The notes under the pieces: generated by a model | Seen by the model: the letters and a program-made list of their open reading frames with translations, nothing else | Database searches by the model: none | What the model was told of the DNA's origin: nothing | Translations under genes and position numbers: made by a program | Source: a virus | Taxonomy: Duplodnaviria > Caudoviricetes | DNA length: 24,260 bases | IMG/VR virus record: IMGVR_UViG_3300033067_000934 | Location: 1-24,260 of that record | Direction: 5' to 3' (one strand) | In this document: positions 15,704 to 24,260 of the stretch, piece by piece | Layout of the letters: each line of letters opens with the position of its first letter | Position numbering within the stretch: position 1 is the first letter of the stretch

Positions 15704-16867
15704 CTATCCAACCTCCGAAAAAAGCGGTGAATCGCCGCAGACGCGGCGGCGCGCGATGGCGGCGTACTCGGCATTGAGTTCGATCAGGATGGCGTCGAAT
15801 CCTTCGATGCTTGCCGCGCGCCCGGTGCTGCCGCTACCGGCGAACGGATCGAGCACGGTGCCTGCCGGCGGCGTGACCAGCCGGCAAAGGTAGCGCATCA
15901 GTTTCGTTGGCTTGACGGTCGGGTGCGTGTTTTGCTTCGGCGCGCAGGTCAAGCCGTTGGCTTGAACATGGGCGTCGTTTCGCATGTTCATGCAGCCGGC
16001 CAGCTTGGGTTCCAGTCCCTCGCAGCCTTCGTTCCGATCCTTGCGGCTCGCCTTCGCGCAGTAGAAGAAACGGGCGGCGCTGCCAGCATCTAGGCGGCGT
16101 GCGCCAGGCTTCATCTTAAAGCCTACCGAACATTCGTTATCGCTATCTGCACTCGGTTCGTTGCCGCGTCCACGACGCATTGCACCGTAGACGTTTTGCG
16201 TTTTGCGTGAATCTGCGCTTGTGCTGGCTTCGGCTATCTGCCCAGGCGCAATCGGAAACGCCGCCAGCACTTCCTCGCTGCCGTCGTGGATGACGTTGGC
16301 TGGCCAGCGGCCAATGCCATAATCAACTGGCTGCGTACTGCCGATGTGGCCATAGATTCCGTTCGTTCCTGCAGCGCGGCCATTGTTGCGCGCGCCACTA
16401 TCTCCAATCCTGCACCCGTCGATGTTCAACGCTCCGGTGCCGTGCTGCATGACATTCGCCGCGACGGTTCCGATCAATGGCTTGCGCGCCACGACGATAG
16501 GCTCGTGCGCTGGCTTGAGCGCGGTGCCAAATCCTTTCCAGTCGCCGTCAAGATTCTTCGATTTCGGGAATCCTGACGCGTAAATCCACATGATTTGATC
16601 GCGAACCTCAAAACCCGCGTCCTCGATCGCGCAAGCGAGCCGGTGATACGTGCGCGATCCGCCGAATGCGAGCAGATGACCGCCCGGCTTGAGCACGCGC
16701 AGGCATTCGCGCCACACGTCCGCATCGTAGGCAATGCCGGTCGAATCCCACGCTTTGCCCATGAATCCGAGTTCGTAGGGCGGATCCGTGACGACCGAAT
16801 CTACGCTCGCATCCGGCAGCGTGCGCAACACGTCCCTGCAATCCCCAACGAGTATCCGAACGGTCAT
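15704..16867 (-). CDS. DNA methyltransferase, N6A/N4C beta class
   Basis: VTDPPY near the N-terminus; HPTVKP and VLDPFAGSGSTG at the C-terminus; start ATG 16867. Confidence 0.92.
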   Translation of the reverse strand: MTVRILVGDCRDVLRTLPDASVDSVVTDPPYELGFMGKAWDSTGIAYDADVWRECLRVLKPGGHLLAFGGSRTYHRLACAIEDAGFEVRDQIMWIYASGFPKSKNLDGDWKGFGTALKPAHEPIVVARKPLIGTVAANVMQHGTGALNIDGCRIGDSGARNNGRAAGTNGIYGHIGSTQPVDYGIGRWPANVIHDGSEEVLAAFPIAPGQIAEASTSADSRKTQNVYGAMRRGRGNEPSADSDNECSVGFKMKPGARRLDAGSAARFFYCAKASRKDRNEGCEGLEPKLAGCMNMRNDAHVQANGLTCAPKQNTHPTVKPTKLMRYLCRLVTPPAGTVLDPFAGSGSTGRAASIEGFDAILIELNAEYAAIARRRVCGDSPLFSEVG

Positions 16868-17184: not shown

Positions 17185-17480
17185 CAGCCGGCCTTCTGCG
17201 CGTACAGCGCGATGGTGCCGCGCAGCGCGTCCCAATCGGATTTTCTTACCGTGACGAGGCCTCCGGCGCTGCCGGTCAGGCCAAGATTCAGGAACGCAAG
17301 CAGGTCGCACAGGTTCTCGATTCGGATGCCGGTGTCGCCGGCCAGCCACTTGCTGAAATTGCCCTCGCTCATGTCCAGCGAGTCGGCGCAGCCCTTTTGG
17401 GTCGCGTCTGCAACCGCGCGCAAGATGCTGCTGTGTATCTTACGTGCGGTTTCCGCCTTGGTGTCGTTTGATGGCAGCAT
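17184..17480 (-). CDS. cII: CII-like transcriptional regulator
   Basis: ARKIHSSILRAVA..TQKGCADSLDMSEGNFSKW resembles the lambda CII HTH; follows cro. Confidence 0.75.
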   Translation of the reverse strand: MLPSNDTKAETARKIHSSILRAVADATQKGCADSLDMSEGNFSKWLAGDTGIRIENLCDLLAFLNLGLTGSAGGLVTVRKSDWDALRGTIALYAQKAG

Positions 17481-17481
17481 G

Positions 17482-17697
17482 TCAACCTACTCCCCTTCGT
17501 ACTTGCCGTTTGCGCGAGCCATTGGTGCCGAAGATTCCGCGGCGGTCCTTGATCGCGCGCCAGCACCACGCGTCCGGCACCGGGTCGTCATCTTCCTGAC
17601 GGCAAACGGCCTGCTTGGAGATGCCCAGTTCGGCCGCGAGGTCAGAGTCGCGGTCGATGCCAAGGCGCGATTTGAGCTGTTGTTTTGTCGGGTTCAC
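17482..17697 (-). CDS. cro: Cro-like HTH repressor
   Basis: DSDLAAELGISKQAVCR HTH followed by PVPD; first gene of the leftward unit; likely start GTG 17697. Confidence 0.75.
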   Translation of the reverse strand: MNPTKQQLKSRLGIDRDSDLAAELGISKQAVCRQEDDDPVPDAWCWRAIKDRRGIFGTNGSRKRQVRRGVG

Positions 17698-17703
17698 CCG
17701 CGT

Positions 17704-17743
17704 AGTAAACCATCGTTTACCGTTGGCGTCAACCACTATTTAC
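17704..17743 (-). promoter_or_regulatory. PR-like promoter with two operators
   Basis: -35 TTGACG (17732-17727), 17 bp, TGn-TTTACT (17709-17704). Operators GTAAAC-catc-GTTTAC (17705-17720) and GTCAAC-cact-ATTTAC (17728-17743). Confidence 0.75.
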
Positions 17744-17811
17744 CGTAACGGCAGGATGATCGCGTCATGATCGGCAGCCGGCGACTAGCCGAAGCATCCA
17801 AAGTTCCTGAC

Positions 17812-17835
17812 GCCGCCCGCCGGGCGGTTCTTTTT
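17812..17835 (+). terminator. Rho-independent terminator within the switch region
   Basis: GCCGCCC-GCC-GGGCGGT followed by TCTTTTT. Confidence 0.7.
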
Positions 17836-17864
17836 CGCCCGCGGCGCGGCCGTGCGACTACACG

Positions 17865-17904
17865 GTAAACACTTGTTGACACCACCAGTCAACTATGCTT
17901 TACT
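17865..17904 (+). promoter_or_regulatory. PL-like promoter with two operators
   Basis: -35 TTGACA (17876-17881), 17 bp, TGn-TTTACT (17899-17904). Operators GTAAAC-actt-GTTGAC (17865-17880) and GTCAAC-tatg-CTTTAC (17888-17903). Confidence 0.78.
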
Positions 17905-17935
17905 CGCAATCGCTATCTGCATAGGAGATAGAACG

Positions 17936-18265
17936 ATGCGTGAAAATCAGTTGGCAGACACCCGTGCCGCACTCGTGGTGAAGTCCATTTCGAGCGCGGC
18001 GCACAAGTGGAACATGCAGCCGTTGCACCGCCAAACGGCGCTGCGCATCGGCACCGACGTTCTCATCAACGGGGGGGGCGTTTCGCAGGCGATCGACGCC
18101 GCGAACCGTTACATCGCCGCGCGCGTGGTGCGCGAAAAGCTGGTTGCTATGGAGCAGCAGCCCAAGCCCTATACCGTTTCGGAATGGGTCGGCTGGGTCG
18201 TGTTCGGCGCGGCCATCATCGTGATCTGCATCGAAGCCGCGAAGGCGGCTGGGGTGCTGGCATGA
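17936..18265 (+). CDS. Early hypothetical protein with C-terminal TM
   Basis: AGGAG RBS, ATG 17936; hydrophobic WVGWVVFGAAIIVICI. Confidence 0.75.
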   Translation: MRENQLADTRAALVVKSISSAAHKWNMQPLHRQTALRIGTDVLINGGGVSQAIDAANRYIAARVVREKLVAMEQQPKPYTVSEWVGWVVFGAAIIVICIEAAKAAGVLA

Positions 18266-18579
18266 ACGCACAGACTAAGCACACCGCTGGGCCGGATGTA
18301 GTGTCAGCAATGGTTTCCAAGCTCTATGTCGGTGGCAACTTCGGGCCGCGAGAAATGGTTTTGCATTGGAATGAAAACCCGAGGCCAACCGGCCTGATTG
18401 CGAATTGGGTTTCGGCAAAAACGCCAGAAACATTGCGTGCGCTTCGCAAAGCCGAGCGTGACGGACTTGTCGAATGCTCCGGAACGCAAAAACCAGCGCG
18501 CAGTTGGAACGCAGCAGACCGAAAGGAATTGCACTGGAAACTCACTAGCGCCGCCATCGCCAAGGCGGTGACGCCATGA
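18262..18579 (+). CDS. Early hypothetical protein
   Basis: ATGA overlap; starts MNAQTKHTAGP and ends AAIAKAVTP, termini typical of phage early proteins. Confidence 0.65.
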   Translation: MNAQTKHTAGPDVVSAMVSKLYVGGNFGPREMVLHWNENPRPTGLIANWVSAKTPETLRALRKAERDGLVECSGTQKPARSWNAADRKELHWKLTSAAIAKAVTP

Positions 18580-18764
18580 GCGAACTCACCGTTGACGCGC
18601 TGGGTGACGAGAACCTGATCGCCAAACGCGATTCCGAAATGCGCCTACTGGCCGAGATGATCGACGAGAACGCCACGCCGGCCACAGCCGCGTCGCGCGG
18701 CCTTAACGAATGGTTCAACCGGAACATGCACCTGGCCGACACGCGGCACCCGCCGGAGAAATGA
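18576..18764 (+). CDS. Early hypothetical protein
   Basis: 62 aa, ATGA overlaps at both ends. Confidence 0.65.
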   Translation: MSELTVDALGDENLIAKRDSEMRLLAEMIDENATPATAASRGLNEWFNRNMHLADTRHPPEK

Positions 18765-18976
18765 CCGTGCAGCGCATGGTGAAGATCGAGGGTCAAATCG
18801 CACCGTGCCAAGGCTGCGGAAACCAGCCTCGGCACTGGCTCGAAACCACGCACGGCGGCCAGCACTTCATCGAGTGCTCGCCGTGCAACACACGCACACC
18901 AAAGTTTTACACCTTTCAGGAAGCGGTCGAATCGTGGGAACGCAACGACGTCGCGGCCGTGAATATCGCCGCGTGA
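18761..18976 (+). CDS. Lar-family (restriction alleviation) zinc-ribbon protein
   Basis: PCQGCG...FIECSPCNTRT...EAVESWER; ATG 18761 with GGAG RBS. Confidence 0.7.
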   Translation: MTVQRMVKIEGQIAPCQGCGNQPRHWLETTHGGQHFIECSPCNTRTPKFYTFQEAVESWERNDVAAVNIAA

Positions 18977-18992
18977 CACAGGAGAAATCACG

Positions 18993-19805
18993 ATGAATGC
19001 AGTAGTGCAACACCCGCAATCGCGTCAGATGGTCAGTCGGCAAGATGACATTCGCACCGCGCTGAGTACGAGCCTCTACCCGGGCGCGTCCGACGAGAGC
19101 ATCAACATGGTGCTCGCGTACTGTTCTGCGGCTGGCCTGGACCCGATGCAGAAGCCCGTGCACATCGTCCCGATGTGGGATAGCAAGGCGCACGCGATGC
19201 GCGATGTCGTCATGCCAGGAATCGGCCTGTATCGAATCCAGGCGTCGCGCAGCGGGCAGTTCGCCGGCATGAGCGAGCCGGAATTTGGACCGATGCTCAC
19301 CGAAACTATCGGCAACGTCCAGGTTACGTTCCCGGAATGGTGCAAGGTCACAGCAAAGCGCCAACTGGAAACCGGCACCATCGCGGAGTTCACGGCCGTC
19401 GAATACTGGATCGAGAACTACGCGATCAAGGGCGGCAAGGAAAAGGACCAGTCGCCCAATGCCATGTGGATGAAGCGCGCGCGAGGCCAGCTGGCGAAGT
19501 GTGCCCAGGCCCAGGCTTTGCGCATGGCGTTCCCCGAAATCGGCGCGCAGCCGACGGCCGAAGAAATGGATGGCAAGGAAATCATCCAAGACGAACCGCG
19601 CGTGATACGCGCAGAGCCGCGGCCGCAACTTGCGGCGTACTCCAACGAAAGGTTCGACAAAAACCTGCCCGCGTGGCGCGAGGTCATAAAGTCCGGCATG
19701 AAAACGGCCGACGACATCATTGCGATGGTAGAGACGAAGGGCACGCTCACCGACGGGCAGCGTGCCGCGATCCGCGCCGTGAAGGCGCAGGACGGTGCGC
19801 AATGA
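18993..19805 (+). CDS. bet: Phage recombination protein Bet (RecT family ssDNA annealing)
   Basis: YCSAAGLDPMQKPVHIVPM, GIGLYRIQASRSGQFAG and MW.KR.RGQLAKCAQAQALRMAFPE. Confidence 0.92.
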   Translation: MNAVVQHPQSRQMVSRQDDIRTALSTSLYPGASDESINMVLAYCSAAGLDPMQKPVHIVPMWDSKAHAMRDVVMPGIGLYRIQASRSGQFAGMSEPEFGPMLTETIGNVQVTFPEWCKVTAKRQLETGTIAEFTAVEYWIENYAIKGGKEKDQSPNAMWMKRARGQLAKCAQAQALRMAFPEIGAQPTAEEMDGKEIIQDEPRVIRAEPRPQLAAYSNERFDKNLPAWREVIKSGMKTADDIIAMVETKGTLTDGQRAAIRAVKAQDGAQ

Positions 19806-21460
19806 AAACTGTCCAGCACGTTCAGGGCTCGCCAGGCTGGCACGATCATCGCCGCACCACGCACAACGCCAGCGACGCGCCGGCGATGATGGGCGTATCG
19901 CCATACGTTACCCGCGCCGATCTGGTGAAGCAGCGCGCGACCGGCATTGAGCGCGTCATCGACGAGCAGACGCAGGCCGTATTTGACCGTGGTCATGCGG
20001 TTGAACCGCTGCTGCGCGCGATGGCCGAGAAGATGATCGGCGAGGATTTGTACCCGATCACGGCCACCAGCGACGACGGCTATATCAGCGCCAGTTTCGA
20101 TGGCGTGACGCTGGACGAGTCCATCATTTTCGAGGCCAAGCAACCGAATGCAGCAAAGTGCGCAGCCATAGACGATGACTGTATTCCGGAAATGGATTAC
20201 TGGCAGATCGTGCAGCAATTTGCCGTGAACGAATCGGCGGAACGTTGCATCTACATGGTCGGTGACGGCACCCAAGACAACACATGGCGCATGTGGATCC
20301 ATCGTTCGAAGATCGAGGCGGACATTCCGAAGATGCTGGCAGGCTGGGCACAGTTCGATGCGGACGTCGCCGCCTACGTTCCGGAGCAAACGTCAGCGCC
20401 CGCGCCGATCGCAAAGCCGGTAGAAGGTTTCGGTTCGCTCGCGCTGCGCGTCGAGGGCCGCGTGCTGGCGTCGAATCTGGACGCATTCCGAGAATCCGCC
20501 GATGCTTTCCTCGCGCGCCTGCCGAAGCCTGCGGAACTGGAAACCGATCAGGACTTTGCCGACGCCGACGCGGCGGTCAAGGCGTGCACCGAGGCCGAGG
20601 GTCGGATCAAGGCCGCCAAGGATGCGGCGCTCGCGCAAATGGCTGACGTCGATGCTGTGCTGCGCACGGCCGACACCATCGCCGAGACGATCCGCGCCGC
20701 GCGGCTTGCGCTGGACAAGGCTGTCAAGTCCGAGAAGGAACGCCGCCGCGCCGAGATCGTCGCTGCCGGTGCTGATGCGGTGCGCGCGCACTACGCGACG
20801 ATCAACGCCACGCTCGGCGCGCATGCCATCCTCGCCCCGCAATCGCTGTCGCTGGACATCGGCGCCAGCATCAAGGGCCTGAAATCGCTGGCCAGCATCA
20901 AGGATGCCGTCGATACGGCCGTGGCGAACGCGAAGATCGACGCGAGCCAGCGGGCGGAAACCGTGCGCGCAAGCGTTGCCGCGCTCACCGAGGCGATGTC
21001 CGGCCACGAAACGCTGTTCCCGGATCGCGTGGCGCTGTGCGCGTCCAAGGCACCGGACGACATCCGCAACCTGGCCGCGGCACGCATCGCCGAGCACAAG
21101 GCGCGTGAAGCCGAACGTCAGGCACGCGAAGCGGAGTGCGCCAGCAAACAAAGCGAGATTCTTGCCGGGCAGCCGGCACACCAAGCGCAGAGCATGGCGC
21201 CCGCCGCCGCCGTGTCTGCCACCCACGCTCAGGGTCAGGCCGCGGCGGTTCGGCCTGGCGCGAAGATCAAGCTCGGAGAAATCAATGCTCGCATCGCGCC
21301 GCTCAAGATCGACTCCGAAGGACTGGCGCAGCTCGGGTTCAGTCCGGTCGGCACCGAGCGCGCCTCGAAGCTCTACAACGAACGCGACTGGCCGGCGATC
21401 TGCGACGCCATGATGGCGAAGATCGTTGCGGCCGCCACCAACGCGGCGAGGGCCGCGTGA
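19802..21460 (+). CDS. YqaJ-like (lambda Exo family) exonuclease with long C-terminal domain
   Basis: QGSPGWHDHR, ASDAPAMMGVSPY, GHAVEP, SASFDG, FEAK and WQIVQQ; ATG 19802 overlaps the bet stop. Confidence 0.9.
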   Translation: MKTVQHVQGSPGWHDHRRTTHNASDAPAMMGVSPYVTRADLVKQRATGIERVIDEQTQAVFDRGHAVEPLLRAMAEKMIGEDLYPITATSDDGYISASFDGVTLDESIIFEAKQPNAAKCAAIDDDCIPEMDYWQIVQQFAVNESAERCIYMVGDGTQDNTWRMWIHRSKIEADIPKMLAGWAQFDADVAAYVPEQTSAPAPIAKPVEGFGSLALRVEGRVLASNLDAFRESADAFLARLPKPAELETDQDFADADAAVKACTEAEGRIKAAKDAALAQMADVDAVLRTADTIAETIRAARLALDKAVKSEKERRRAEIVAAGADAVRAHYATINATLGAHAILAPQSLSLDIGASIKGLKSLASIKDAVDTAVANAKIDASQRAETVRASVAALTEAMSGHETLFPDRVALCASKAPDDIRNLAAARIAEHKAREAERQAREAECASKQSEILAGQPAHQAQSMAPAAAVSATHAQGQAAAVRPGAKIKLGEINARIAPLKIDSEGLAQLGFSPVGTERASKLYNERDWPAICDAMMAKIVAAATNAARAA

Positions 21461-21660
21461 CGAAGTGCACGACCGTCGACGTGCCCGGGCCGGTGTCCAT
21501 CCCCTTCACCGGCCCAAACCCCTATGCCGCTACGCCAGCGGCGGTTCGTTCGGAAGCTGGCCTATTCGACCACCCCGCTGCGCAGACGTGTCAAGGAAGC
21601 CACAGGGCTTCGCGCGGCGGGATTTTTCTTCCAACGCAGGAGACGGCAACCCGTGAATGA
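21457..21660 (+). CDS. Possible small hypothetical protein
   Basis: GTGA overlap with the exonuclease stop; 67 aa; no recognisable motif. Confidence 0.35.
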   Translation: MTKCTTVDVPGPVSIPFTGPNPYAATPAAVRSEAGLFDHPAAQTCQGSHRASRGGIFLPTQETATRE

Positions 21661-21739
21661 CATCGCATCCAACAAGACGATCCTCCTGCGTGAGATCGGC
21701 GACGCCGCGACGATGGTCATAGGCTCCTTCAATCCGTAA
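21653..21739 (+). CDS. Possible 28-aa peptide
   Basis: AGGAG at 21638-21642 and GTG 21653; stop lies just before the next gene. Confidence 0.35.
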   Translation: MNDIASNKTILLREIGDAATMVIGSFNP

Positions 21740-21742
21740 ACC

Positions 21743-22078
21743 GTGAGCCACCAGGACGCCCAGCTACCGCTTGACTTCACACGGCCACGGCCGTGTGGGG
21801 TCGGCTACAAGGAGCGAGGAGGCGCGTCGCAGGCAGTTGCCGAGGAATTGGCCGAGTCCGGTCGCGCGCAACGCCTGCGGCAGCTGGTGACGAGCTACTT
21901 CGACGCCGGGCACCAGGCAACAGCCGACGAAGCCGCCGCGGCACTTGGCGAGAACATCCTTGCGATCCGGCCACGCGTGTCCGAGCTGCGCAAGGCCGGA
22001 ATCATCATCCCCGCCGGAGAGCGCAGGCCATCGTCGAGCGGGAAACCGTCAACAGTCTGGAAAAGGAACGCAGCATGA
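21743..22078 (+). CDS. Winged-HTH DNA-binding protein
   Basis: TADEAAAALGENILAIRPRVSELRKAGII...RRPSSSGKPSTVW. Confidence 0.75.
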   Translation: MSHQDAQLPLDFTRPRPCGVGYKERGGASQAVAEELAESGRAQRLRQLVTSYFDAGHQATADEAAAALGENILAIRPRVSELRKAGIIIPAGERRPSSSGKPSTVWKRNAA

Positions 22079-22269
22079 AAACCCGTATCTACCTCGTCAC
22101 CGACTCGGCCGACTTGTCGCATCGCTTGGTGCGCGCCAGCACGCCGGCACAAGCGCGCACTCACGTCACGCGCGATCGCTTCGCAGTCGACGTTCCAGAC
22201 CAGGACGAACTAGTCGAATTGACCAAGCTGGGAATCGAGGTCGAGAACGCCGCAGAACTTGGCGAGTAA
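22075..22269 (+). CDS. Small phage protein
   Basis: MKTRIYLV...RLVRASTPAQARTHV; ATGA overlap, AGGA RBS. Confidence 0.75.
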   Translation: MKTRIYLVTDSADLSHRLVRASTPAQARTHVTRDRFAVDVPDQDELVELTKLGIEVENAAELGE

Positions 22270-22313
22270 GCAATGGCGTTCGTCCGGGCGGTGCGCTGGC
22301 CTGCCGCATTCGG

Positions 22314-22375
22314 CGCTAACGCCCAAGCTAAGGCGCCGTAGCGAAGCGAAGGTCGCCTTGAGCGCGTAGTTATGC
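22314..22375 (-). mobile_element. attC site 1
   Basis: - strand: R'' GCATAAC, 5 bp, L'' GCTCAAGG ... L' CCTTAGC, 6 bp, R' GTTAGCG. The + strand folds with unpaired G22360 and T22353. Confidence 0.85.
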
Positions 22376-22392
22376 CGCAACGCGAGGACACG

Positions 22393-23244
22393 ATGAAGGA
22401 ATGCAGACGCCCGATTGTGCGATACCACGGCGGCAAGTGGAGACTCGCGCCTTGGATTATTGAGCACCTGCCGCATCACCGCGTTTACGTGGAGCCGTTT
22501 GGCGGCGGCGGTAGCGTGCTGCTGCGCAAACCGCGCAGCTACGCCGAGGTGTACAACGATCTTGACGGCGAAATGGTGAACCTGTTTCGGGTGGCGCGCG
22601 ACAACGGGCGCGAGCTGCTTGAGCAGTTGCGCATGACCCCATTCGCGCGCGCCGAGTTTGCCGAAGCATGGGAGCCAGCCGAGACGCCACTTGAGCAGGC
22701 GCGGCGTACTGTGGTGCGCGCCTTCATGGGCTTTGGGAGCGCAGCGATTACGTTGATGCGCGCACCCGAGAAAGCTGCACGCGGTGGCACACCAGGTACG
22801 GGCTTTCGGGCGAACAGCAATCGTAGCGGAACTACGCCGGCGCACGACTGGAAAAACTACCCGGACGCGCTGGACGCGATTATTGAGCGCCTGCGCGGCG
22901 TGGTGATTGAAAACCGGGATGCTTTGGATCTGATGCCGCAACACGACGGCGAGGGAACGGTGTACTACGTTGACCCGCCCTATGTAGCCGAGACGCGCGA
23001 CAAAGGTGGCGACTACCGGCACGAAATGACCGACAGCGACCATGAGCGGCTTGCGAACGTGCTGCACGGACTGACTGGCGCGGTGGTGCTGAGCGGCTAC
23101 GCGTGCGATTTATACGACAGGATGTATGCAGGCTGGCAGCGCATCGAGCGCGCCGCGTATGCAGACGGCGCCAGAAAACGAATTGAAGTGCTGTGGCTTT
23201 CAAAAAACTGCCCAGCGGCGGGACTTTTTAATAATGCGGCATAA
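22393..23244 (+). CDS. Dam/D12-class N6-adenine DNA methyltransferase (cassette A)
   Basis: YHGGKWRLAPWI, YVEPFGGGGSV, EVYNDLD and YVDPPY; GAGGA RBS before ATG 22393; TAA stop lies inside the attC2 core. Confidence 0.92.
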   Translation: MKECRRPIVRYHGGKWRLAPWIIEHLPHHRVYVEPFGGGGSVLLRKPRSYAEVYNDLDGEMVNLFRVARDNGRELLEQLRMTPFARAEFAEAWEPAETPLEQARRTVVRAFMGFGSAAITLMRAPEKAARGGTPGTGFRANSNRSGTTPAHDWKNYPDALDAIIERLRGVVIENRDALDLMPQHDGEGTVYYVDPPYVAETRDKGGDYRHEMTDSDHERLANVLHGLTGAVVLSGYACDLYDRMYAGWQRIERAAYADGARKRIEVLWLSKNCPAAGLFNNAA

Positions 23245-23299
23245 CGCTTGAGCTAAGCGGCGGCACGAAGTGCCGTCCGACTTGAGCGAATAGTTATGC
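23239..23299 (-). mobile_element. attC site 2
   Basis: + strand GCATAAC-gcttga-GCTAAGCGGCGGCAC-GAA-GTGCCG(T)CCG(A)CTT(G)AGC-gaata-GTTATGC; unpaired bases lie in the right arm. Confidence 0.9.
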
Positions 23300-23325
23300 G
23301 ACATGCCGAACAATGAGAGAGTGAT

Positions 23326-23622
23326 ATGCCAGCATACTACGAAACCCACGAACCGCCGCACTGCCCTACGTGCAACTGCGGAATGCCCGACAGACATGAG
23401 GCGCAGGCGCGCGGAGCGCATGCCGCGCCGTGCGGCAAGCATTGTGAGGCGACCGCATTCAATGTTGAATTTCGCAGCTTACGCGCATTGTTGAGGCTTG
23501 CGTTGGTGCACGTTGAGGCAAGCGCCGAAGCCAGCCATTTAACGGATGGATTCAGACGTGGGCCGGAAAACGAACTGGACAAATTGGCCGCACGAATCAG
23601 GTGCGCTACACATGGCGCATAA
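23326..23622 (+). CDS. Cys/His-rich hypothetical protein (cassette B)
   Basis: 98 aa with HCPTCNCG and PCGKHC; fills the cassette; stop lies in the attC3 core. Confidence 0.7.
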   Translation: MPAYYETHEPPHCPTCNCGMPDRHEAQARGAHAAPCGKHCEATAFNVEFRSLRALLRLALVHVEASAEASHLTDGFRRGPENELDKLAARIRCATHGA

Positions 23623-23671
23623 CGCTTGAGCTAAGCGGCCCGTAAGGGTCCGCTTGAGCGAATAGTTAGCC
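23617..23671 (-). mobile_element. attC site 3 (55 bp)
   Basis: + strand GCATAAC-gcttga-GCTAAGCGGCCC-GTAA-GGG(T)CCGCTT(G)AGC-gaata-GTTAGCC. Confidence 0.9.
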
Positions 23672-23690
23672 GACATCTAGGAGAATGATA

Positions 23691-23918
23691 GTGAAGAAGT
23701 GGGAAAAACTGGCTTGCGTTTCGTACATTTGTTTTTTCACCGGTATGGCGGTCGCCGAGATTGGTCAGCCAATAGCAGCAAGCGAGCCAATCACAATTAG
23801 CACTGCGATATCGGTCTTTTGGTTCATGGCGATACCTGCAATGCTCGGGTACATGGCTGGCAGGAAAGATGAAATGGCGGCTAACGCAGAGTTAAGCGGC
23901 AGCCGCCGCGAGGAATAA
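23691..23918 (+). CDS. Small two-TM membrane protein (cassette C)
   Basis: AGGAG at 23679-23683 favours GTG 23691 (ATG 23685 is the alternative); two hydrophobic segments; reads into attC4 (ANAELSG). Confidence 0.7.
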   Translation: MKKWEKLACVSYICFFTGMAVAEIGQPIAASEPITISTAISVFWFMAIPAMLGYMAGRKDEMAANAELSGSRREE

Positions 23919-23968
23919 CAGACTAGCGCAGCCGATACGCGGCTATCCGCTTGAACGCTGAGTTAGAC
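23879..23968 (-). mobile_element. attC site 4 (90 bp)
   Basis: + strand GGCTAAC-gcaga-GTTAAGCGGCAGCCGC...GCGGCTA(T)CCGCTT(G)AAC-gctga-GTTAGAC. Confidence 0.85.
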
Positions 23969-24000
23969 TTCGCCCGGCAGATACCGATAGGAGACTCAAA

Positions 24001-24195
24001 ATGGAAAAGTTCCCGCCGATTCTTGGCATTCCGTGCGACAACTTGCATAGCCTCGTTGGTGATGCGCTACCGAGCAATGGCGAGTGGCATACGCTCACGG
24101 CATGCGTTAGGAAAACAGAGGACGGAGTATTCCAGGTCGATGAGTTGTTACTTCGGTTAGGAATAGACCAAATAAAAGCGAAGCCTAACGCTTGA
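24001..24195 (+). CDS. Hypothetical protein (cassette D)
   Basis: AGGAG RBS; 64 aa; ends PNA* inside attC5. Confidence 0.7.
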   Translation: MEKFPPILGIPCDNLHSLVGDALPSNGEWHTLTACVRKTEDGVFQVDELLLRLGIDQIKAKPNA

Positions 24196-24242
24196 GCTAA
24201 GCGGCGCCGTGAAACGGCGTCGGCTTGAATGAACTGTTATGA
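24183..24242 (-). mobile_element. attC site 5 (aadA-like)
   Basis: - strand TCATAAC-AGTTC-ATTCAAGC-CGACGCCGTTTCACGGCGCC-GCTTAGC-TCAAGC-GTTAGGC. Confidence 0.9.
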
Positions 24243-24260
24243 CTCACGTTGCCGCCATTT

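Follow-up and report, generated by a model that had tools for sequence, protein, structure and literature searches.

Integrons are usually treated as bacterial tools, and two preprints reportedly cast them as stores of anti-phage genes. Phage-borne clusters of attC sites, including methylase cassettes and sites that IntI1 can recombine, have already been published (Qi et al. 2023, PMC9892861): its main text reports 17 phage clusters of attC lacking integrase (CALINs) in 10,705 genomes, with five methylase cassettes, and IntI1 recombined 5 of the 6 phage attC sites assayed there. Here we analysed 24,260 nucleotides (nt) of phage DNA (the window), which is the entire virus record IMGVR_UViG_3300033067_000934, estimated to be 41% complete, and whose right end holds five attC sites with single genes between them. 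We consider it likely that this region is an integrase-less, antisense integron-type cassette array at the end of the phage early operon, probably serviced by the IntI of the host. What is unusual about the array is its polarity, which is inverted relative to that of bacterial cassettes.

The five sites lie where a preliminary description of the window had placed them (Table 1). A covariance model, which that description had named as a check, matches exactly these five sites in the window, all on the minus strand, with scores of 38.2 to 62.8 bits (rough E-values of 4e-14 to 9e-8), and the next-best match in the window reaches 10 bits. The model was trained on 27 bacterial attC sites (2 from class 1 integrons and 25 chromosomal; 14 loci were scanned, each contributing at most its first five short sites), and since the training loci were retrieved with window-derived queries, it is neither fully independent nor blind. 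By sequence comparison, site 5 offers independent support for attC identity: its minus-strand reading is 83–89% identical to the annotated class 1 attC sites of aadA1 and aadA6 over about 62 nt. All five sites have the anatomy R''-spacer-L'' (with its extra base)...L'-spacer-R' with conserved AAC and GTT on the minus strand, and the left arm of this site family is identical in Rudaea, Dokdonella, Rhodanobacter and related genomes. A stricter scan for this anatomy recovered 3 of the 5 sites and a loose one all 5, the latter together with 4 stray matches in the window (about 2.8 per 24 kb in shuffled sequence); because of these strays, we take significance from the covariance model. Rfam gave no match over the window at E-values up to 1. 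Sites 2 to 5 fold better than their shuffles, with z-scores of −2.7 to −4.4. Folded as they stand in the array, sites 2 and 4 are complete and sites 1, 3 and 5 lack full core pairing; the junctions of the circles that the four complete units would form, built in silico, all pair through the core and are 3–7.5 kcal/mol better than the array forms. With five co-oriented sites within 1.9 kb, compared with the at least two that define a CALIN, the array fits a CALIN as far as it is visible.

Judged by spacer lengths and by the extra base of L'', the attC top strand is the minus strand at all five sites, and the open reading frames (ORFs) of the array lie on the plus strand, so that every cassette gene is antisense to the attC top strand. 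In the canonical layout a gene on the top strand is followed by its own attC; in the window each site precedes an antisense gene, a feature absent from the preliminary description. Class 1 controls (L138 and L139) gave the canonical result, gene and attC top strand being co-oriented, and Table S3 of PMC9892861 gives, as bottom strand of the aadA7 attC, a sequence that resembles the plus strand of the window. In integrons, the bias towards the bottom strand is described as securing the correct orientation to the promoter Pc (PMC5371416). To call polarity elsewhere, we took the strand bearing an ORF led by a ribosome site over 60% of the gap, in loci gathered with patterns blind to ORF direction (full flanks for 80 of at least 130 loci in one search and for 80 of 142 in another). 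A first pass gave 81 antisense, 0 sense and 62 unclear cassettes in viral loci, and 2 antisense, 29 sense and 135 unclear ones in bacterial loci (Fisher p = 8e-25 for the called cassettes, which are not independent of one another). The enlarged viral set of 407 distinct cassettes from 143 loci comprised 263 antisense, 3 sense and 141 unclear; among the 263, the stop codon coincides with the TAA of the following core in 102, as in A and B, and 58 begin within the site before them. Approached from the neighbouring gene, 80 loci with relatives of RecE had model matches in 13, and 38 of the 45 matches lay downstream of recE on the antisense strand.

Several single loci may be recorded beside these counts. 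L332 and L452 are the sole viral loci of the 143 in which sense cassettes outnumber antisense ones. In phage TJE1 (L525:244-1519), polarity is normal despite a phage-type cargo, a methylase. L102:527-1851 has five plus-strand model matches that lie upstream of recE and look like another array on that contig, in the opposite operon. Two bacterial cases also stand out: L160:6075-13047 holds a facing pair of attC arrays in opposite orientations, and L168, a 3.4-kb contig of a bacterial bin, consists of an attC array in which one or more ORFs are antisense and is possibly a mis-binned phage array.

The units between the sites also bear the marks of integron cassettes. Their boundaries at 22320, 23245, 23623, 23885 and 24189, as first described, agree with where IntI crossover should fall for sites on the minus strand, and direct reading bears out the complementarity noted between the two ends of each unit (11/11, 12/13, 11/12 and 11/12 for A to D), such as a circular intermediate would leave. 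Scored over 13 nt, the own ends of units A to D match at 11, 12, 11 and 11 positions, and the other 21 pairings at 5–10. Across 451 units, 264 have ends matching in at least 7 of 9 positions, compared with 21 for random pairing. A comparison of these 451 units between loci gave 14 near-identical pairs (identity of 90% or more across 85% of the length): both sites were kept in 4 pairs, the front site only in 6, the rear site only in none and neither in 4. This pattern means that the mobile unit is fixed as site-then-gene, in accord with the boundaries first described. In the six front-site-only pairs, all from other phage loci, differences on the left end by position 4 of the site and those on the right begin at position 9 or later, so that the breakpoints in all six bracket the AA|C crossover at 6|7. 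L012 and L049 differ by one inserted cassette. The units thus behave as mobile cassettes among related phages; the comparison with related phages that had been proposed shows cassettes changing neighbours with breakpoints around the crossover.

Table 1. Features of the array and of the early operon in the window (positions in the 24,260-nt record)
Feature	Position	Strand	Remarks
attC site 1	22314..22375	-	38.2 bits; promoter-proximal array end; crossover 22319|22320 joins phage backbone
attC site 2	23239..23299	-	62.6 bits; fold z −4.4
attC site 3	23617..23671	-	60.2 bits
attC site 4	23879..23968	-	90 nt, long loop; 43.2 bits; fold z −3.4
attC site 5	24183..24242	-	aadA-like; 62.8 bits
Cassette A	22320..23244	+	site 1 body and Dam-type (D12 class) DNA adenine methyltransferase; ends 11/11 complementary
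Cassette B	23245..23622	+	site 2 body and 98-aa ORF 23326-23622
Cassette C	23623..23884	+	site 3 body and 77-aa hydrophobic ORF 23685-23918, extending into site 4
Cassette D	23885..24188	+	site 4 body and 64-aa ORF 24001-24195
Cassette E (start)	24189..24260	+	ORF from 24239 inside site core, runs off window
RecT-like annealing protein	18993-19805	+	PF03837, phrog_2449; same early operon as array
RecE/YqaJ-like exonuclease	19802-21460	+	PF09588, phrog_7655; same early operon as array

Based on these findings, we propose a mechanism for the array. Read along the genes, a unit consists of attC body, gene and half core, and the recombining bottom strand is the coding strand. IntI would excise such units as circles; their targets would be either further attC sites or, at the end of the row far from the promoter, an attI-like core in double-stranded form. 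Such a core is seen in relatives, and in the phage of the window it would lie beyond 24260. Transcription from the phage's own early promoter would enter the row on the side opposite to Pc in an integron, so that expression and retention would be limited to antisense cassettes. In addition, homology in the arms that the sites share probably allows some exchange beyond this, through RecT/RecE or slippage. Recombination is raised when the bottom strand lies on the lagging template (PMC5371416); no origin was located in the phage of the window.

The preliminary description left it open whether the integrase is the phage's own or the host's, and our analysis favours the second. The window encodes no tyrosine recombinase, intI included, and the contig is cut on the side where intI would lie. 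IntI scored above the cut-off in 1 of 50 related viral records, and for this reason host IntI is the likely catalyst and servicing by an integrase of the phage's own is unlikely; all 5 bacterial genomes tested that bear this site family encode IntI. The single viral IntI (L022:5998-7689, in G049) stands beside one attC in the classical divergent layout together with a second tyrosine recombinase, and this locus may be a piece of a host integron or a phage-borne integron.

For the proposed entry point, we examined arrays with at least 700 nt downstream and took as their ends the sequence matching the far end of the last unit (80 ends, of which 10 were dropped as undetected attC and 70 kept, a few of them still attC). 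At 31 of the 70 ends stands the motif AAC-N6-T[ACG][GT][AG]C, which has a frequency of 0.96% among 40,738 background positions and appears once in 451 internal sites. It is similar to the second box of attI1, and also to the array ends next to intI in L152 and L216.

Several points, told in this and the next two paragraphs, weigh against the reading that we prefer. Site 1 taken alone folds no better than its shuffles (z −0.78, plus strand). The polarity counts cover only the site families reached by window-derived patterns, and the published TJE1 array has sense polarity, so both polarities exist in phages. No promoter was identified: a scan of 17400-24260 returned no sites anywhere and is hence uninformative on the earlier statement that the array leaves no room for promoters, which is plausible from the ORF starts, inside a site or 13–32 nt after it. 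The distal motif was defined after the data had been viewed, and in its strict form it is found at none of the 4 bacterial array ends in IntI-bearing loci (2 of the 4 share TAG at positions 7-9, one of them 2.6 kb from intI). The attI1 box, moreover, is one base longer than the distal core. Since the bacterial ends fail the strict motif and attI1 differs in length, "attI-like" is meant only as an analogy. This difference would also suit a dedicated recombinase other than IntI, encoded by the phage beyond the contig end or of the host Xer type, as would the incompleteness of the window and the occurrence of some tyrosine recombinase in 8 of 22 records. We regard such an enzyme as very unlikely, because among the 9 records with a completeness of 90% or more, 5 lack any tyrosine recombinase (G044, the closest RecE relative, is one of them), because the sites are close to proven IntI1 substrates, and because the non-IntI recombinases near attC are described, in the part of PMC4889954 that deals with them, as not being dedicated enzymes.

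A further group of observations concerns exchange in the site arms, which are shared over 17–25 nt and near-identical. The four pairs that keep neither site have front sites more alike than rear sites in every case, and in public sequencing runs, 7 distinct ones of 23 having been compared by their contigs alone, three different site bodies stand in front of gene B. A single IntI crossover accounts for neither the pairs differing at both sites nor the case of gene B, and the latter suggests that further exchange takes place in the shared arms or that cassettes were born repeatedly. RecT and RecE, encoded about 850 nt upstream of the array, are candidates for such exchanges, and one could go further and suppose that the sites are integron-derived while the genes are now shuffled altogether by the phage's Red-like RecE/RecT or by replication slippage through the arms; integrase-independent loss between similar sites is known (PMC5371416). 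Homology exchange, however, predicts neither six upstream-only pairs with no downstream-only ones nor breakpoints confined to the core, and the unit-specific complementarity of the ends and the two-box distal core would likewise not be expected from it. We therefore judge this alternative unlikely as the main process.

The third group concerns assembly. In run X1, one contig of depth 30 spans 18537-23264 with no differences from the window and ties backbone, site 1 and cassette A together over 4.7 kb. To the right of 23264, the same run gives short pieces at depths of 28–170 (B 86–142, C-D 103, site 5 169), and no listed contig bridges A to B. The order B-C-D-E is therefore unsecured in this phage and may be an assembly path through repeats; the B–E part is possibly mis-joined among co-occurring phages, and the feature itself would survive such an error. 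At two letters of B, all contigs that cover them (from six runs) disagree with the window, and an 806-nt contig of run X9 carries B with a site-3-like attC and then other sequence in place of C. Contigs that do continue into C carry a variant of site 3 with differences at 23638, 23645 and 23657, and site 3 of the window may be a mosaic of two site variants from the public runs. In run X5, B and C-D are deeply covered while 23100-23216 has no cover; in runs X7 and X8, some stretches of the array are likewise missing, and in none of these runs were uncovered parts counted as evidence. In contigs of X5 and X9, D continues into another site body for only 9 and 21 letters, which is below our 31-letter rule and is a hint only. 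Junctions of ambiguous type in the runs were considered as evidence of excision and set aside, as they fit other cassettes with similar ends.

The risk of a chimera, which had been raised at the outset, is accordingly real for the order of B to E. It can be taken further: the right end might be no phage feature at all and instead a stretch of a host integron, either taken up complete and in reverse or attached during assembly. The jump in depth, the missing bridge from A to B, the guanine-cytosine content of 50–58% in B–D (50% in C) beside 64% in the backbone, and the presence of the same site arm in chromosomal arrays of Lysobacterales would all agree with this. A captured array, however, would keep gene and site co-oriented, and antisense cassettes make up 263 of the 266 called in viral loci compared with 2 of 31 in bacterial ones; in addition, backbone, site 1 and the phage-type cassette A stand on one contig without a difference, and cassette E recurs in phage L058. 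We hold such an origin to be highly improbable. The setting of the array is a phage and not a host chromosome, as its context shows, and we continue with the array as an antisense one serviced by host IntI.

The cargo is phage-type. The cassette A gene starts at 22372 or 22393 and ends at 23244, its stop being the TAA of the next core, and the methylase that it encodes (PF02086, E-value 2.6e-24; phrog_56; phage-type) is likely to protect against restriction. Its relatives, at 46–71%, are found in 18 other loci, 2 of them attC-flanked and 16 plain, and the closest is not attC-flanked. A tree built from cassette A with 15 relatives leaves its three cassette-borne members ungrouped; a single clade is not rejected (p-AU 0.42), and single and repeated cassette birth are thus indistinguishable from this tree. 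The small proteins of cassettes B, C and D have no Pfam match. Protein B has 11 homologues, some near-identical; a 70% relative lies in L289, where no attC was detected, and a metagenome scan with protein B gave one locus only. Protein C belongs to a single near-identical cluster, and protein D has 4 homologues at 67–71% besides itself. Cassette E shares its site type and its first 7 residues with an inverted cassette (phrog_12600) of L058, the closest RecE relative; the likeness starts at the core, and the neighbour in L058 is different.

The rest of the window is that of a phage. Its minus strand encodes major head, portal, terminase, endolysin and cII-like genes, and its plus strand a divergent early operon with Lar-like, RecT-like and RecE-like genes, at whose far end, after two small ORFs, the array begins and from which it runs past the contig end. 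The capsid protein is about 50% identical to those of Bcep22-like podoviruses, too distant for naming a host; multi-site bacterial matches with a named taxon are mostly Lysobacterales, which by sequence matching are a possible host group. In annotated phage genomes we found no close relative of the array, the only matches being to methylases and to the class 1 integron of a P1 phage. At 17187-17736 lie cII-like and cro/cI-like helix-turn-helix genes on the minus strand, and on the plus-strand side of them no recognisable repressor or integrase was found within the window. The gap that separates the early operon from the divergent cro-like gene holds a long imperfect inverted repeat with a terminator-like stem inside (17727-17893), a candidate operator/promoter region; it matches the loose attC scan and not the covariance model. 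A second DNA methyltransferase (N6/N4 type, PF01555) at 15704-16861 is outside the array and has no attC.

If our reading of the array is right, phages parasitise IntI to diversify counter-defence and accessory genes, and two cassette pools have one chemistry in common and are separated by strand. We would tentatively go one step beyond it, to an idea that we think possible but doubtful: phages may run a cassette pool of their own on host integron machinery, with the inverted polarity acting as a firewall and phage genes becoming cassettes inside phages. A host cassette, often an anti-phage one, that enters a phage row would then land antisense to the phage promoter and be silent, and a phage cassette in a host integron would land antisense to Pc and be hidden. 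We know of no settled account of how gene cassettes first arise. Since the same phage genes occur with and without attC, as in the methylase family, the origin of cassettes would become testable, and phage early regions could be a place to catch cassette birth. In addition, tools that assume the gene to stand before its attC would assign the wrong site to each gene in antisense arrays.

How, then, does the array compare with known systems? The phage CALINs, TJE1 included (PMC9892861), resemble it in having attC sites between single ORFs, no intI as far as the window shows, methyltransferase cargo and sites of similar size and anatomy; unlike in the window, top strands and genes in TJE1 are both on the plus strand. 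The main text of that paper describes no consistently antisense arrays, no cassette exchange between phages and no distal attI-like core, and no description of antisense phage attC arrays was found in the open-access literature that we searched. Class 1 integrons and those of Lysobacterales/Rhodanobacteraceae share with the window the attC family, the complementarity of cassette ends and the crossover position. In these integrons, attC comes after its gene, the array has intI and attI beside it, and transcription starts at Pc, whereas in the window the site precedes the gene, no intI is seen and the entry point is likely promoter-distal. Insertion at attG, as set out in the relevant part of Loot et al. 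(10.1101/2022.09.11.507474), is a route by which a genome lacking an integron could receive its first cassette, through a double-stranded GWT core; attG is said there to need only GWT and to show no strand bias, whereas in the phages the array ends have in common a second box, 6 nt off the core, and polarity is strongly biased. It is the inverted layout, therefore, that goes beyond the published phage attC clusters.
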